A stretch of DNA of 59,264 nt from Actinomycetes bacterium (GCA_021824095.1 JAKALQ010000004.1:1-59264); one strand, 5' to 3'. Positions 24,836 through 59,025 are shown, numbered from the stretch's first letter. Numbers and translations are program-made. Notes: generated from the sequence alone by a model not told the origin.

Positions 24836-25000
24836 GGGGCCTGCCGAGCAGGGGCGCGGCGCCAGGGGTCGCGGCGCGAGGGTTGGGCGTTGTCGTCGGG
24901 TTGCCCGTCAGCGCGTCGGTGTCCGGCTCGGCGGTGAGCCGATGTCAGCCCGACGGCCTGCGAATCGCGGGCACGGGTGAGCCTTTGGCAGGATGTCGCC

Positions 25001-25906
25001 ATGGCCGACATGAACTTGCGCGGCGTCGTTGATCTCGGCGCACTCGCCGCGGCACGCAAGCAGGAGGCGGCGAGCGCGGCCGCCCGGGCGACGGCGCCGG
25101 TGGGCGCCATCATCGATGCCAGCGACGCCACCTTCGAGCGTGACGTCCTCCAGGCGTCCATGCGCGTCCCCGTCATCCTCGACTTCTGGGCAACCTGGTG
25201 CGGGCCCTGCCGCCAGCTGTCGCCCATCCTCGAGCGGCTGGCTGCCGAGTACGGCGGCCGCTTCCTGTTGGTGAAGGTCGACTCCGACGCCAACCCGGGC
25301 CTGTCGCAGGCCTTCCGAGTGCAGTCCATCCCGTCCGTCTTCGCCCTGCTTGGCGGGCAGCCTGCACCGCTGTTCCAGGGCGCATACCCGGAGCCGCAGG
25401 TGCGGCAGTACATCGATCGCGTCCTTGAGGTGGCGGCGCAGAACGGCATCACCGGCACGGTCGGGGGCGCAGCGCCGGAGGCACCGGAGGCGGAGCCCGA
25501 GGAGGATCCGCGCTACGTCGCCATCCACGAGTCCATCGAGGCGGGGCACTTCGATGCGGCGGCCGACGCGGCCAAGGCGCTCGCGGACGCGCGTGATCCG
25601 GAGGGCCCCGCGCTCGTCGCGTATGTGTCGATGCGTCGGCGCATGGCGGGCACCACGGAGGCTCTGGCGCGGGCTGCGTTCGCAGCGGCTCCGTCGAGTG
25701 TCGCGGCGGTGCTGGCGGTGAGCGACTTCGACTTCCTCACCGGGGGGCCCAGCGTCACCTACGACCGCTTGATCGCCGCGCTGCGCACGTCCGCTGGTGA
25801 CGACCGCACGGCCATCCGCGACCGACTGCTCGAGTACTTCGCCGTCGACGGCAACACCCCCGAGACCACGGCCGCCCGCAAGTCCATGACCGCCGCCCTC
25901 TTCTGA
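25001..25906 (+). CDS. YbbN/CnoX-like thioredoxin-TPR co-chaperone
   Basis: DFWATWCGPC, VQSIP, helical C-terminus ending AALF. Confidence 0.9.
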   Translation: MADMNLRGVVDLGALAAARKQEAASAAARATAPVGAIIDASDATFERDVLQASMRVPVILDFWATWCGPCRQLSPILERLAAEYGGRFLLVKVDSDANPGLSQAFRVQSIPSVFALLGGQPAPLFQGAYPEPQVRQYIDRVLEVAAQNGITGTVGGAAPEAPEAEPEEDPRYVAIHESIEAGHFDAAADAAKALADARDPEGPALVAYVSMRRRMAGTTEALARAAFAAAPSSVAAVLAVSDFDFLTGGPSVTYDRLIAALRTSAGDDRTAIRDRLLEYFAVDGNTPETTAARKSMTAALF

Positions 25907-25922
25907 CGCGCCGCCTTCCGCG

Positions 25923-25980
25923 CTAGGACTCAAAACGGGCTGAAATTCGTCCCGAATTGTCCGCCCGTTTTGAGTCCTAG
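25923..25980. repeat. 58-bp palindrome, family A, left copy
   Basis: 18-bp perfect IR CTAGGACTCAAAACGGGC/GCCCGTTTTGAGTCCTAG with 22-nt spacer. Confidence 0.95.
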
Positions 25981-27012
25981 TCCGAAGTCCTCCTGACGGT
26001 GGGAGCGCCGTACTCGGCGCGGGGGCTCCCAGCGCGGGGTCATGCCGTACTCCGGGTCATACGGCTGCAGGGTCACCCCGAGCGCGTGGGCGAGTTCGTG
26101 CCACCGGGGGCCGTCGGGCGCGCCGACGTCGTCGTACTGCATGCGCACCACGCGCCACCCCGCCTGCCGGAGGTCGTCCTCCCGCCGCTTCTCCGCGATG
26201 AGCGCATCCATGCCCACCGCGTACTTCTCACGCCCGTCGAGTTCGAGGACGACCCGACGCTCCGGCCAGGCCAGATCTGCCCGGTAGGACGCCCCGCTGG
26301 CACCCACGAGCGGCAGCTGCAGTCGCGGCTCGGGCAGGTGCCGGGCAAGTGTGCGGCCGCGAGCCATCGACTCCAGCCCCGACTCGGCTGTGGGTTCCGC
26401 CCAGCGAATGGCAGGGCGAAGCACCCGAGTCCCCGGCCAGCCGGACATGTAGCGCGCCAGGAGGACGAGTTCGTCACGACCCGCGCCCAGCGCAAGCGCG
26501 TGGTCGAGGGTGACGAGGGCTCGTTCGAATGGGCAGTTGCGGGCAAGGTCGAGCGCCGTTCGGGCGACCGTCGTCACCCGAAGCCCATTGCGATCGACGA
26601 CGTGGCTGGATGCATACTGTGCGGGAAGTGTGCGGACGTCACCGCCGAGTCGCGCGCCGAAGGCCTCCCGAGTGCGCAGGATGACGAGTTCTCGCGCACG
26701 CGAATCCGTTGTGTAGGGCGTGCGCATACCCCAGACGATCGCTGCGCTGGTGTGGGCGATGATCGCGTCCCTGCCAAGCCTGCGAGCGCGTGCGTCGATC
26801 CATTCGCGTGCGTCCAAGGCCTCGTGCTCCGCGTCGCGATAGAGCCCAGGGCCGACACGTTCGATGCGCCCATTGCCGTGCAGGGTGCGCAGTTGCGCCC
26901 GGGTCAGGCCGGCCGCCTCAGCCTCCTGAAGGCCAAAGACGCCAGCAGGGAGCTTCCCGCGTCGTGCACTGGCGTCGTTCGCGGAGGACTGGGGTGGGGG
27001 CGGCGGCATCAC
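25930..27012 (-). CDS. AbiEi-like N-terminal wHTH + AbiEi C-terminal + DUF559/Vsr-like endonuclease domain protein
   Basis: AGLT...L...G.IERVGPGLY, AH.SAA..WG, VTTVARTALDLAR, AESGLES, ADLAWP...VVLELDG..KY, EKRREDDLRQAGWRVVR; start GTG 27012 or ATG 27009. Confidence 0.85.
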   Translation of the reverse strand: MMPPPPPQSSANDASARRGKLPAGVFGLQEAEAAGLTRAQLRTLHGNGRIERVGPGLYRDAEHEALDAREWIDARARRLGRDAIIAHTSAAIVWGMRTPYTTDSRARELVILRTREAFGARLGGDVRTLPAQYASSHVVDRNGLRVTTVARTALDLARNCPFERALVTLDHALALGAGRDELVLLARYMSGWPGTRVLRPAIRWAEPTAESGLESMARGRTLARHLPEPRLQLPLVGASGASYRADLAWPERRVVLELDGREKYAVGMDALIAEKRREDDLRQAGWRVVRMQYDDVGAPDGPRWHELAHALGVTLQPYDPEYGMTPRWEPPRRVRRSHRQEDFGLGLKTGGQFGTNFSPF

Positions 27013-27081
27013 CGCGTCATGGTGCCGAGCAACCCTCGCAGCCGCGTTGCCCGTCCACAGGCCCACAAGGCGCATTCCATG

Positions 27082-27139
27082 CTAGGACTCAGAACGGGCG
27101 GACAAACCACCACAAAATTCAACCCGTTTTGAGTCCTAG
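27082..27139. repeat. 58-bp palindrome, family A, right copy
   Basis: CTAGGACTCAGAACGGG...CCCGTTTTGAGTCCTAG; spacer GGACAA...TTCA matches the reverse complement of the left copy. Confidence 0.95.
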
Positions 27140-27143
27140 CGTG

Positions 27144-29426
27144 TCAGGAACGAGGGGTGAGCCAGACGGTGGCCATGGGTGGGACGACGATGACCGCGGA
27201 TGCTGGGCGTCCGTAGTGCGGGGTGTCGGTCGCCAGGATGATGCCACCACGTGCGTCCGCGTCACGCTCGCCACCGGGCCGCGCGCTGCCCGCGTCACCC
27301 GCGTCACCCGCGTCACCCGCGTCGCCCGCGCTGCCACCGTTGCCCAGGCCGGAGCCGCCGAAGCGGGCCTCGTCGGTGTTCAGCACCTCCTGCCACTCGC
27401 CCGCGAAGGGCAGTGCGATCCGATGCTGCAGCAATGGCACCGGCGAGAAGTTCGTGACCGACGCGAGCACCTCGCCGTCATGGCCCCAGCGCAGCCAGGC
27501 CAACGTGTTGTGCGCCGCATCATCCGAGTCGAGCCACTCGAAGCCGGCCGGCTCGTTGTCGCGCTGCCACAGCGCGGGCGTCGCGCGGTAGACGCGGTTC
27601 ATCTCGCGCACCGCCGCCTGCACCCCCTGGTGCTCCGCGAACTGCAGCAGCCACCAGTCGAGCGAGTTCGCGGCATTCCACTCGTTCGACTGCGCGAACT
27701 CGCCGCCCATGAAGAGCAGCTGCTTGCCCGGGTGCGCCCACATGAAGCCGAAGTACGCCCGCAGTGTCGCGAGCTGCTGCCAGCGATCGCCCGGCATGCG
27801 GTCGATGAGCGACCCCTTGCCGTGCACCACCTCGTCATGCGACAGCGGCAGGATGAAGCGCTCGCTCCACGCGTAGACGAGCGAGAACGTCATCTCGTTG
27901 TGGTGGTACTGCTTGTAGATGGGGTCGCGCTTCAGGTACTCGAGGGTGTCGTGCATCCAGCCCATGTTCCACTTGAGCCCGAACCCGAGCCCGCCCCACT
28001 GCACGTCATTCGTGACGCCCGGCCACGCGGTGGACTCCTCGGCGATTGCGAGCACACCCGGCGTACGCGCCCGCAGCACCGACGTCATCTCGCGCAGGAA
28101 CTCCACCGCCTCGAGGTTCTCGCGCCCGCCGTATTGGTTGGGCACCCACTCGCCTGATTCGCGCGAGTAGTCGCGGTAGAGCATGGACGCGACGGCGTCG
28201 ACACGCAGCGCGTCGACGTGGAACTGCTCCACCCAGTACACGGCGTTCGCGACGAGGAAGTTGCGCACCTCCGTGCGACCGAAGTCGAAGATGTACGTTC
28301 CCCAGTCCATGTGCTCGCCGATGCGCGGATCCGGGTGCTCGTACAGCGCCGTGCCGTCGAAGCGGCCGAGCGCCCAGTCGTCCTTCGGGAAGTGCGCCGG
28401 CACCCAGTCGACGATCACGCCGATGCCGGCGTTGTGCAGGGTGTCGATGAGGTGGCGCAGGTCGTCGGGATCGCCGAAGCGCGACGTGGGCGCGAAGTAG
28501 CCCGTCACCTGGTAGCCCCAGGACGGCTCGAACGGATGCTGTGCCACGGGCAGGAACTCGACGTGCGTGAAGCCCTGCTCGACGACGTACTCGGTGAGCT
28601 GCTCGGCGAGCTGCCGGTATGAGAGCCCGCGGCGCCACGACCCGAGATGCACCTCGTACACGCTCATCGGCGCGTTCACCGGGTCGACGGTGGCGCGCTG
28701 CGCCATCCACGCATCGTCATGCCACTCGTAGCGTGACGTGTACACGACGGACGCCGTGGCCGGTGGCACCTCGGTGTGCTGCGCCATGGGATCGGCCTTG
28801 TCGCGCATGTGCCCGTCCGGGCCGGTGATGCGGAACTTGTAGACGGCCCCGTCGCCGACGAAGGGCACGAACAGCTCCCACACGCCGCTCACGCCGAGCG
28901 AGCGCATGGGGTGCGCCGAGCCATCCCAGTGGTTGAAGTCGCCGACGACCTGCACGCCGCGCGCATTCGGCGCCCACACCGAGAAGGCCGTGCCCTGCAC
29001 GTCGCCCATGGGGGAGGGGAAGGTGCGGGTGTGCGCCCCGAGCACCCGGAAGGACTCCTGCAGCTGGCCGGCGTGGAACAGGTGCAGGTCGTACTCGCTG
29101 ATGGTCGGGAGGAAGCGGTACGGATCATCGGCCGGCACGGCGTCACCGGAGTAGCGCACCTCAAGCCGGTAGTCCGGCACCTCGGCACCGGGCAGCGTCA
29201 CCGTCCACACGCCACGGTGCTCGTGCCGCGCGGCATGGCGGCCGTCGGCGGTGATGACGACGACGCTGAGCGCGAAGGGACGCAGGACGCGGATCGTGCA
29301 CGCGGCTCCATGCGGATGCGGCCCGAGCACGCTGTGCGGGTCATGGTGGCGGCCCTCGACGATGGCGTCGATGACGGCGAAGTCCACCGGCAGCGTCTCG
29401 AGCGGTGCGTCCTGCGTTCCCATCAT
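27144..29426 (-). CDS. glgB: 1,4-alpha-glucan branching enzyme
   Basis: [48 protein letters not shown]. Confidence 0.98.
27282..27335. repeat. 9-bp in-frame tandem repeat (6 units) inside glgB
   Basis: CGCGTCACC x3 plus variants, encoding GSA-(GDA)4-GSA. Confidence 0.9.
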
Positions 29427-29451
29427 GTGCTCCTCGTCGTCGAGGCTCCCA

Positions 29452-31419
29452 TCATGCCCGTCCGATCGCGATGACGTGCGCGACCGCGCGGAACGGGTCG
29501 AGCTCGACATAGGCCTCGCGACTCCACGTCCACACATTGCCGGAGACGAGGTCCTCGGCGCGAACGGCGGCATCCCAGTCCAGCCCGAGCGCGGGCAGGT
29601 CGAGACGAACGGTGCCATGCGCCGGCACCCGCGGGTCGAGGGTGCAGATGGTGAGCACCACGTCGTCGTGGTCGCGGCGCGAGTAGGCGATGAGCGAGTC
29701 GTTGTCGGTCTCGTGGAAGGTGATGTCGCGCAGCGTCTGCAGCGCGGGATGCTCGCGGCGGATGCGGTTGAGCAACGTGAGGTAGGGCGCGAGGCTGCGT
29801 CCCTCGGCCTCAGCGGCCGCCCAGTCGCGCGGACGGTACTGGTACTTCTCGCTGTCGAGGTACTCCTCGCTGCCCGGACGCACTGCGGTGCCCTCGTACA
29901 GCTCGAAGCCAGCGTAGATGCCGTACGTCGGCACCATGGTTGCGGCGAGTGTGGCGCGGATGGCGAAACCGGCGGGGCCGCTCACCTGCAGGAACTCGTG
30001 CAGGATGTCGGGCGTGTTCGGGAAGAAGTTCGGACGCATGTAGGCGGCTGCCGGGCCACTGAGCTCGCGCAGGTACTCCTCAAGCCCGGCCTTGTCGTTG
30101 CGCCAGGTGAAGTAGGTGTACGACTGCTGGAACCCGACCTCACCGAGCACGCGCATCATGGCCGGCCGCGTGAAGGCCTCGGCGAGGAAGATGACGTCCG
30201 GGTCGGTGGCGTTGATGGCCGCAATGAGCCGCTCCCACATCCACACCGGCTTCGTGTGCGGGTTGTCGACGCGGAAGATGCGCACGCCGTGGGCCATCCA
30301 GAAGCGCACGATGCGCTCCACCTCGGCGTACAGGCCCTCGGGGTCCTCATCGAAGAACATCGGGTAGATGTCCTGGTACTTCTTCGGTGGGTTCTCGGCG
30401 TAGGCGATGGTGCCATCGGCGCGGCGCTTGAACCACTCCGGGTGCGACCGCACCCAGGGGTGGTCGGGGGACGCCTGCAGTGCGAGGTCGAGGGCCACCT
30501 CCATGCCGAGCCGCCGGGTCTCGGTGACGAAGGCATCGAAGTCGGCGAGGGTGCCGAGGTCGGGGTGCACGGCATCGTGCCCACCCGCGGCACCACCGAC
30601 GGCCCACGGCGAACCGGGGTCACCCGCGGCAGGGGTGAGCGAGTTGTTCGGGCCCTTGCGGTGCGTGACCCCGATGGGGTGGATGGGCGGCAGGTACACG
30701 ACATCGAAGCCCATGGCTGCCACTGCGGGCAGGCGCTTCGCGGCCGTCGCGAAGGTGCCCGAGTGCACGCCATCGGAGCCCTCGCTGCGCGGGAAGAACT
30801 CGTACCAGGAGCCGACGAGGGCGCGCCGACGCTCGACCTTCACCGGGAAGCGCGGGGATCGGGCGACGAGGTCGCGCACCGGGAAGTCATGCATGGCACG
30901 GTCGAGCACCGGGTCGAAGGCCACCGTGAGGCGCTGCTGCGGGTCGCCACTCGTATCGCGCAGTGCCGCAATTGCCGCGCGTGCGGCTTCCCGCGCCTCC
31001 GCGGGGGCATTGAGCAGCGTCGACCCGAGGGCGCGCTCGATGAGGTTGGACCCCTCGAGCAGCTCGAGTTCGACGTCGACGCCCGCCGGCACCTTGAGCC
31101 CGGCCGCGTGGTGCCATGTGCCCCACGGGTCGTCCCAGGCCTCGACGACGAAGGCGGCGGACCCGATGAGCGCGGGGCGCACCCGGGCCGACCAGCGGTC
31201 CTGCCGGGTCATCGTGGCGCGCACGGGGTGCTCGCTTCCGTCCGCCTCGATGAGCACCATGGTGACGCCGAGTGCGTCATGGCCCTCACGGAAGACGGTG
31301 GCACGGATGTCGAAGGCCTCGCCCTCGACGGCCTTGATGGCGCGTGCGCCACTCGCGATCGTGGGCTGCACGTCGAGGATCGGGAAGCGGTTGGGGTACT
31401 GGCGCTCGGTTGCGGTCAC
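29452..31419 (-). CDS. glgE: Alpha-1,4-glucan:maltose-1-phosphate maltosyltransferase
   Basis: [42 protein letters not shown]. Confidence 0.97.
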
Positions 31420-40641: not shown

Positions 40642-40707
40642 CCCCGTGATCTGTTGTTTCGGGCCCGAATTCCGCCAGGAATGGGCCCAAAACAACAGAT
40701 CACGGGG
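40642..40707. repeat. Palindrome family B copy 1
   Basis: CCCCGTGATCTGTTGTTTCGGGCCC/GGGCCCAAAACAACAGATCACGGGG, 16-nt spacer. Confidence 0.95.
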
Positions 40708-45763: not shown

Positions 45764-46008
45764 GCCCGTCGATCCGTCCCTCTGCCGACTCGTCGGCGGC
45801 CCCCGCGCAGCACCGGCGCACCACCCTCCCCGCATTCCCCGCGATCTGTTGTTTCGGGCCCGAAATCCGCGATTTTCAGGCCCAAAACAACAGATCGCGG
45901 ATGGAGAAGGCAACGGTGCCACGCGCGTTCGCTGCTCACGTTGACGCCGCCCGCGAGATGGCGAAGGCCGTGGGTAGGCGTTCCAAGGGACGCTACGACG
46001 GCTGAGCC
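45701..46008 (+). repeat. 66-bp direct repeat of the smpB 3' end (45701-45766 and 45943-46008)
   Basis: GACGCCGCCCGCGAGATG...GACGGCTGAGCC, one mismatch, 242-bp period. Confidence 0.97.
45839..45900. repeat. Palindrome family B copy 2
   Basis: CCGCGATCTGTTGTTTCGGGCC/GGCCCAAAACAACAGATCGCGG. Confidence 0.95.
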
Positions 46009-55182: not shown

Positions 55183-55240
55183 GCGATCTGTTGTGCTGGG
55201 CCCATTCCCGGCGGAGTTCGGGCCCAGCACAACAGATCGC
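55183..55240. repeat. Palindrome family B copy 3 (reverse orientation)
   Basis: 21-bp perfect IR GCGATCTGTTGTGCTGGGCCC; spacer is the reverse complement of the copy 1 spacer with 2 mismatches. Confidence 0.95.
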
Positions 55241-58961: not shown

Positions 58962-59025
58962 GGCGTTCCGCTTTCTGATGCATGAGCGGTACGCGTACCG
59001 CTCATGCATCAGAAAGCGGAACGCC
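58962..59025. repeat. 64-bp perfect spacer-less palindrome, family D
   Basis: GGCGTTCCGCTTTCTGATGCATGAGCGGTACG|CGTACCGCTCATGCATCAGAAAGCGGAACGCC. Confidence 0.97.

Follow-up and report, generated by a model that had tools for sequence, protein, structure and literature searches.

Introduction

The closest described relatives of the locus reported here are the REPIN-RAYT systems, in which doublets of repetitive extragenic palindromic (REP) elements form hairpins and are accompanied by REP-associated tyrosine transposases, or RAYTs (Bertels & Rainey 2011, PMC3116915). In the account given there, a hairpin repeat is scattered through extragenic space and inverted copies of it enclose a single-copy gene, distinct repeat groups occur side by side in one genome, each attended by its own gene, and the repeat unit consists of two inverted short arms folding as a hairpin. 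Insertion sequences (IS) of the IS200/IS605 type and miniature inverted-repeat transposable elements (MITEs) also have small units with hairpin-forming ends and short gene-less derivatives dispersed in intergenic DNA. We analysed a 59,264-nt contig of an Actinomycetes bacterium (GCA_021824095.1, JAKALQ010000004.1:1-59264), hereafter the window, in which a single gene is enclosed by two inverted palindromes. Its product, P0001, joins an AbiEi-type DNA-binding half to a Vsr-like nuclease domain, and probably propagates the hairpins that bracket its gene.

On each point of layout the locus resembles REPIN-RAYT, with four repeat groups in the source genome, G000. It differs in its enzyme: no HUH/Y1 transposase (PF01797) was found in P0001 or in G000 (89.65% complete), and an AbiEi fold with a Vsr-like PD-(D/E)XK domain is present instead. 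Its units are also longer, at ~72 nt, and whereas RAYTs are described as vertically kept, the P0001 gene is a recent insertion absent from congeners. Because the HUH transposase is lacking, the locus is not a member of REPIN-RAYT; functionally, it has the REPIN-RAYT layout with a PD-(D/E)XK nuclease in place of the HUH tyrosine transposase.

The comparison with I-Bth0305I (PDB 3r3p), an EDxHD/Vsr-like homing endonuclease, concerns the nuclease half. Both proteins have the same catalytic fold and are encoded by selfish nuclease genes in otherwise conserved DNA. I-Bth0305I resides in a group I intron of phage recA and, as far as its description goes (PMC3239194), cuts the intron-less allele; P0001, unlike it, is free-standing and intergenic, and has an AbiEi DNA-binding module, flanking palindromes and dispersed solo repeats. 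Relatives of P0001 are carried by 5 of 72,556 plasmid records, all large replicons, and by no phage record. As for homing endonuclease genes, an empty allele exists in congeners; those spacers contain no palindrome or CTAG. With the AbiEi antitoxins of type IV toxin-antitoxin systems (6y8q, 1zel), P0001 shares the fold and sequence family of its N-terminal ~150 residues, winged helix included. Unlike AbiE systems, it has no adjacent AbiEii nucleotidyltransferase (DUF1814), and a nuclease domain is fused at its C-terminus. Finally, the cassette differs from IS200/IS605, from DDE-type IS and from MITEs in three respects: it lacks TnpA/TnpB and any DDE transposase, a target duplication cannot be recognised, and its two ends are complete, mutually inverted palindromes.

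A review of PD-(D/E)XK enzymes groups Vsr, DUF559, 3hrl and 3r3p, and its sections on these families do not mention repeats (PMC3424549). No description of a DUF559/AbiEi nuclease with palindromic repeats was found in the literature searched, subscription journals and supplements being beyond reach. The cassette seems to represent a type of selfish DNA not described before, similar in layout to REP/RAYT but with a different enzyme.

Results

A single gene enclosed by two inverted palindromes

The window is contig C117 of G000, a draft genome of 1.95 Mb in 143 contigs (69.6% G+C), which was compared with 60 relatives, including the four congeners G001 to G004. Two 58-nt palindromes were found (Table 1), with 17-nt arms of sequence CTAGGACTCA[A/G]AACGGG. 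This arm pattern has four matches in the window, where 0.03 were expected, and none of 100 shuffles reached four. The asymmetric loops (GGACAA..TTCA) show that the two copies are mutually inverted, the GGACAA side of each being turned towards the gene. Between them lies a single open reading frame (ORF), the P0001 gene, whose stop codon falls within the left palindrome, so that this copy is a translated repeat encoding the last ~17-20 residues of the protein. An earlier reading made without database searches (the sequence-only reading) had described just this arrangement, and had placed the gene between convergent ybbN and glgB; domain matches confirmed both neighbours, a plus-strand thioredoxin and TPR_20 gene and a minus-strand glgB.

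The cassette was then compared with the same place in relatives. The stop-to-stop spacer between ybbN and glgB measures 79 nt in G003 and 55 nt in G004, and contains no gene, palindrome or CTAG. No P0001 orthologue was found among the 60 relatives, the best match being 44% identical. The 1.2-kb cassette (25916-27146) is thus a self-contained insertion at a place where relatives have only a short, empty spacer. The empty sites that the sequence-only reading had called for do exist in two congeners; vertical conservation of the gene here, which would have counted against that reading, does not apply.

The gene product combines an AbiEi-like half with a Vsr-like nuclease

P0001 scored 33.3 bits with the Pfam model AbiEi_4 (cut-off 25), and 12 PADLOC AbiEi models matched its residues ~44-198, which comprise the AbiEi-like winged helix and a C-terminal module; a Vsr/DUF559-like PD-(D/E)XK nuclease occupies residues ~225-320. 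An AlphaFold model built on 88 homologues had a mean confidence (pLDDT) of 85. With Foldseek, the N-terminal half of this model matched AbiEi 6y8q (E 1.3e-6) and Rv2827c 1zel, and the C-terminal domain matched I-Bth0305I 3r3p (probability 0.99, TM 0.53 on target) and Vsr (1cw0 and 1vsr). A profile search of PDB sequences returned the DUF559 structure 3hrl alone, weakly (E 0.026). The AbiEi-DUF559 identity first proposed for the gene is borne out by these folds together with the AbiEi_4 score.

The family is large, with 9116 cluster representatives at E<=1e-3, the best being 58% identical to P0001, whose conserved core spans residues ~41-360. Seven positions are invariant or nearly so across 14 and 88 homologues (E235, D267, E278, D280, G281, K284 and R298), and P0001 keeps all of them; it has the Vsr-like fold with the conserved acidic/lysine catalytic set. 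Conservation is uneven along the protein: 24 of 96 columns in the nuclease domain are conserved at 0.8 or more, versus 4 of 42 in the winged helix.

No AbiEii toxin gene adjoins the P0001 gene, whose only neighbours are the ybbN-like gene and glgB (AbiEii was searched for next to the gene, not genome-wide). Pfam gave only AbiEi_4 and a weak DUF559 match, in keeping with the earlier remark that an AbiEii partner and HUH or DDE transposase motifs are lacking. Given the missing AbiEii partner and the fused C-terminal nuclease domain, the annotation "antitoxin" is probably misleading.

The palindrome is a dispersed repeat of about 72 nt

The sequence-only reading had proposed looking for solo copies of the 58-mer, and 22 were found in G000. 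With the two flanking copies, the family numbers 24 full copies (57-58-nt cores), and one further arm stands unpaired. All 24 share an outer extension which, oriented by the loop, reads aTTCCRCG before the core and CGYGGAA after it, bringing the unit to ~72 nt; mean identity over whole units is 82% (72-93%). Since conserved flanks continue beyond it, the CTAG that had been taken for the terminus of the palindrome is internal to the repeat, neither an element end nor a duplication. A related candidate, CTAG as the target-site duplication of an IS630/IS5-type MITE, was rejected: conservation outside CTAG holds in all 24 copies, and no unoccupied TTCCRCG-CTAG-CGYGGAA site was found in G000.

Arm positions 1-10 are identical in 47 of the 48 arms, though the search tolerated 3 mismatches. 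No stem covariation was seen across the 24 copies, variation consisting of mismatches without compensatory changes. Arms that are invariant while stem variation lacks compensation are the signature of a sequence-specific protein site, and not of selection for RNA structure.

As judged with a caller based on third-position G+C (GC3), most of the 22 solos occupy short intergenic gaps whose neighbouring genes are co-directional, with no clear bias in orientation (9 same versus 6 opposite). Three copies of the family occur within 5.4 kb on one contig (G000:C111:43031-48484), among genes of lower third-position G+C (0.78-0.84); this cluster could represent an island, or a hot spot of local hopping. 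The family is specific to its genome: outside G000, the 60 relatives, congeners included, gave only single two-mismatch matches, the level also reached by a reversed-pattern control.

One nuclease gene for each hairpin family

A de novo census of G000 (stem of at least 14, at most one mismatch) yielded 235 hairpins, of which only four families had more than two members (33, 24, 20 and 12). Each of these four adjoins one AbiEi-DUF559 paralogue, on C5, C117 (P0001), C91 and C131. Mere proximity would produce this for all four families with a chance of ~3e-4 by our own arithmetic. The word "orphan", applied to the P0001 gene at first, understates the situation, since six members of the family occur in G000 and four of these are accompanied by dispersed repeat families. 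The C5 paralogue, at a contig end and containing a TGA, has a palindrome on one side only.

Congeners and other genomes carry families of their own. The cassette palindromes of G001, G002 and G003 are present in ~6, 9 and 14 copies, respectively, in their own genome and in none of the other three, and a Dermatophilaceae metagenome-assembled genome has 13 copies of the palindrome of its own cassette. G004 (95% complete) has no family member, profile search included, and in a 400-kb sample of it none of the 18 hairpins formed a family. Such sampling is coarse, as 235 kb sampled from G003 likewise had no family of more than 2 members. One nuclease is strongly associated with one hairpin family.

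Two of the other G000 families are also represented in the window. Palindromes with GATCTGTTGTTTYGRGCCCGAA arms lie at 40648-40701 and 45843-45896, with a half copy at 55217-55238; this is the family that flanks the C91 paralogue, and C20 alone carries ten copies of it. A third family, the one flanking the C131 paralogue, is represented by a solo at 58968-59019 (arms of the CCGCTTTTCAATGCATGAGCGG type, with 3 mismatches).

Homologous cassettes carry palindromes of their own

It had been suggested that AbiEi-DUF559 paralogues might each have a palindrome pair co-varying with the protein. In a hairpin scan of 13 paralogue loci from G000-G003, a matched pair of 45-68-nt palindromes was found around the gene in 10; among the loci of the genus, 3 had a palindrome on one side only and 1 had none. 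Most pairs are inverted, the cassettes span 1084-1424 bp, and the palindrome sequence is different for every paralogue. No two cassettes of G000-G003 are closer than ~47% identity.

Beyond the genus, a profile of 4 sequences retrieved at least 34 loci, a sample; 30 were used after removal of 3 duplicating G001/G002 loci and 1 without flank. They come from other Actinobacteria, for example Gordonia, Geodermatophilus, Nocardioides, Cellulomonas, Frigoribacterium and Dermatophilaceae. Flanks were compared with each other by Smith-Waterman alignment, with 91 position-shifted controls. Among the matches listed, 13 of the 30 loci scored 60 or more versus none of the controls (control maximum 51), and 15 scored 43 or more versus 3 of the 91. 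The matched flanks fold at ~-26 to -83 kcal/mol (RNA parameters), with 21 of 26 at -40 or lower. Homologues, then, do carry flanking palindromes, whose general absence would have counted against the sequence-only reading. Left/right similarity has a median of 45 within a cassette versus 9 between cassettes, and palindrome similarity follows that of the proteins (Mantel r 0.45, attained in 2 of 2000 permutations; kin are not independent), as in two Gordonia orthologues which have both protein and palindrome in common. The suggested co-variation was thus recovered.

Sites of the solo copies and state of the cassette in metagenomes

At seven solo sites for which an orthologous spacer was available, that of G000 is longer than those of the congeners, typically by ~60-100 nt, and at the 4 sites where G004 is syntenic its spacer is in every case short and unoccupied. 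CTAG is present in 8 of 16 unoccupied orthologous spacers versus 9-15% of short spacers generally. Sites and genomes here are not independent; the enrichment suggests some target preference and is not independent evidence.

One of these sites (G000:C40:1019-1075), downstream of an ABC-ATPase-like gene, is peculiar in that G000, G001 and G002 each have there their own genome-specific cassette palindrome. G003 has an 18-nt palindrome centred on CTAG at this place, and in G004 the next ATG comes immediately after the stop codon. Replacement of a resident palindrome was considered as a general rule and rejected, other cassette families (G001, G002) being found only at this site; the other 6 of the 7 have unrelated small hairpins or nothing. 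In G001, the spacer matching the C24 solo site of G000 contains a 1.1-kb insert of lower G+C (G001:C18:21540-22740), in whose ORFs no family member was recognisable by eye.

Metagenome contigs from two studies contain the same cassette at ~98-100% identity, and summed contig depth over the right palindrome is ~26 times that of the flanks. Among the data sets listed as containing the cassette, none was of RNA. Two odd contig joints were seen, one skipping 714 (one contig, side 27, depth 2.9) and one joining opposite strands at 25956/27104 (one contig); both are too weak to interpret.

Details of the cassette and its neighbours

The coordinates of the cassette are collected in Table 1. The left palindrome has a minority type of loop (GGACAATTCGGGACGAATTTCAG, minus-strand reading), common to the solos on C116 and C119; the right one, of the majority type, shares 92% identity with the C55:2289 solo. 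The annotated ATG of P0001 (27073-27075) touches the extension of the right palindrome, and residues 1-40, like residues 346-381, are unmatched by homologues and disordered in the model; on account of the first two points, the true start may lie further inside the ORF.

Table 1. Positions of the P0001 cassette and its flanking genes in the window.
Feature	Position	Strand	Remarks
Left palindrome (3' side of the gene)	25916..25987; core 25923-25980, 58 nt	minus by loop	family outer extension TTCCGCG at 25916-25922
Right palindrome (5' side of the gene)	27075..27146; core 27082-27139, 58 nt	plus by loop	inner extension TTCCATG at 27075-27081
P0001 gene	25930..27075	minus	381 aa as longest ORF; stop 25930-25932
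Thioredoxin + TPR_20 gene, YbbN/CnoX-like	24977..25906	plus	domain matches
glgB	27144..29618	minus	flanking host gene

The fit between cassette and neighbours is tight. The YbbN-like gene stops 16 nt ahead of the left palindrome core, and the outer side of the right palindrome, CGTG, abuts the stop codon of glgB (27144-27146). As glgB lies upstream of the P0001 gene on the same strand, read-through transcription into the cassette would be possible. Third-position G+C is 0.78 in the P0001 gene versus 0.89-0.91 in its neighbours, and a mirror ORF of equal length lies on the opposite strand (25999-27132). No Rfam match was found across 25700-27400 at E<=0.1. A 9-nt tandem repeat (CCGCGTCAC) at 27257-27318, within the 3' part of glgB, gives a low-complexity insert near the C-terminus that is absent in congeners, the last 61 of 400 query residues being unmatched in G003 and G004.

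Discussion

The locus is best read as a cognate nuclease-hairpin system, in view of the anatomy of the cassette, its insertion, the genome-specific one-to-one pairing of genes and hairpin families, the co-variation of protein and palindrome and the active site, which is intact. The cassette consists of a gene for an AbiEi-type DNA-binding, Vsr-like nuclease bracketed by its own hairpin repeat; we consider it probable that the nuclease propagates these hairpins, and that the repeat has in this way spread to 22 further intergenic sites. The variable AbiEi/winged-helix module would read the invariant arm, GCTAGGACTCA, which is present twice, in inverted order, in each copy. The conserved nuclease would then nick or cut at or beside the palindrome, whether as duplex, hairpin or cruciform, and host repair or replication would copy the palindrome into new intergenic sites. 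The whole unit of gene and palindromes would be copied only rarely, and each paralogue would serve its own repeat family only.

A number of observations weigh against this reading. We know of no PD-(D/E)XK enzyme that alone mobilises DNA in such a way. The DUF559 match of P0001, at 16.9 bits, is under its cut-off of 20.6, although the DUF559/Vsr-like assignment holds despite this score because the fold supports it. With only 77% identity and different loop subtypes, the present flanking pair is not a fresh duplication. No target-site duplication was discernible at the cassette, at the 24 copies or at the sites compared with relatives, whose spacers do not align. Neither an empty-site bridge nor an excision product was seen in the metagenome contigs of four runs (contigs hide rare variants), and no transposition intermediate or insertion polymorphism was found. 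The rule of one nuclease to one family also has its exceptions: in G000, the C27 paralogue has its own pair only and no solo family, and the C11 paralogue has no palindrome; a complete Frigoribacterium genome has the flanking pair only, so that solo families are not universal; and 15-17 of the 30 distant homologues, among the matches listed, had no matched flanks, some of their gene boundaries being only estimated. Lastly, the caller used for the genes around the solos was home-made and crude.

The same locus could also be accounted for if only the whole cassette moved, for example by homing-type copying after a nuclease cut, the solos being footprints comparable to solo long terminal repeats, left behind when recombination between arms deleted the gene, and never self-replicating. 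The arms of the left palindrome recur in direct orientation, over 17-24 nt, in the right one; recombination between them would leave exactly one intact palindrome, and the solos do have the loop type of either the right copy (the majority) or the left copy (C116 and C119). However, such deletions should give the two types in roughly equal numbers, and the ratio is ~20 to 2. Homing is suggested by the resemblance of the nuclease to the homing endonuclease 3r3p and by the arrival of the cassette as one block; yet the ybbN-glgB spacer of relatives holds no palindrome able to serve as a homing site, each family counts one gene copy for 10-30 solos, and the distance between the cassettes of G000-G003 (none closer than ~47% identity) leaves no recent second insertion of any of them. 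We find this account unlikely.

Lower still we rank the view that P0001 is an autoregulated AbiEi-like repressor, a nucleoid protein or a defence nuclease, with the upstream palindrome as operator, the downstream one as terminator or insulator, and the solos as binding sites, that is a regulon or decoys. AbiEi proteins bind inverted repeats in their own promoters. The AbiEi fold of the N-terminal half with its 12 PADLOC matches, the right palindrome directly upstream of the ORF, the invariant arms, as expected of a binding site, and the position of the solos in intergenic spacers, mostly between co-directional genes, would all suit such a role. But no AbiEii partner is adjacent, and regulation leaves unexplained why the same sequence stands on both sides of nearly every homologue, why families are genome-specific and absent in congeners with the same flanking genes, why the solos and the gene itself are insertions relative to relatives, and why a catalytically complete nuclease is conserved. 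We hold it to be quite improbable.

Chance flanking of a horizontally acquired gene by an unrelated MITE of a DDE transposase is nearly excluded: 24 copies in ~2000 spacers would by our own arithmetic flank ~0.3 genes per genome on both sides, copies do cluster locally (three in 5.4 kb on C111), CTAG in 8 of 16 unoccupied spacers hints at sequence-targeted insertion and a draft assembly could hide an IS, but the arrangement recurs with different repeats (10 of 13 paralogues; 13 of 30 distant homologues, among the matches listed, versus 0 of 91 controls), each of the four large hairpin families of G000 is matched to a paralogue, no element bounded by these arms was found at full length, a single unpaired arm being all there is, and the flanks conserved beyond CTAG show that it is not a duplication.

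Returning to the cognate nuclease-hairpin system, we tentatively extend it, with somewhat less than even confidence, to the whole actinobacterial family annotated "AbiEi antitoxin / DUF559". Its members may be the enzymes of a new class of selfish DNA, in which a stand-alone Vsr-like nuclease with a fast-evolving AbiEi-type reader multiplies its own hairpin and occasionally moves as a hairpin-bounded cassette. Genome-specific, REPIN-like repeat populations would result, and the C40 spacer with its three species-specific families would reflect repeated targeting or replacement at preferred sites.

The system lends itself to direct testing, as every genome supplies a number of natural pairs of protein and repeat that differ in specificity. 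The combination of a variable reader with a conserved cutter could serve as a DNA recognition scaffold programmable by evolution. If the nuclease does propagate hairpins, it would form a new enzymatic class among the few routes known for the self-copying of bacterial DNA, which are DDE, HUH, serine and tyrosine recombinases and Cas1. It would also assign a role to thousands of genes that are at present labelled orphan antitoxins or DUF559, and would account for how species-specific families of palindromic repeats arose in high-GC actinobacteria.

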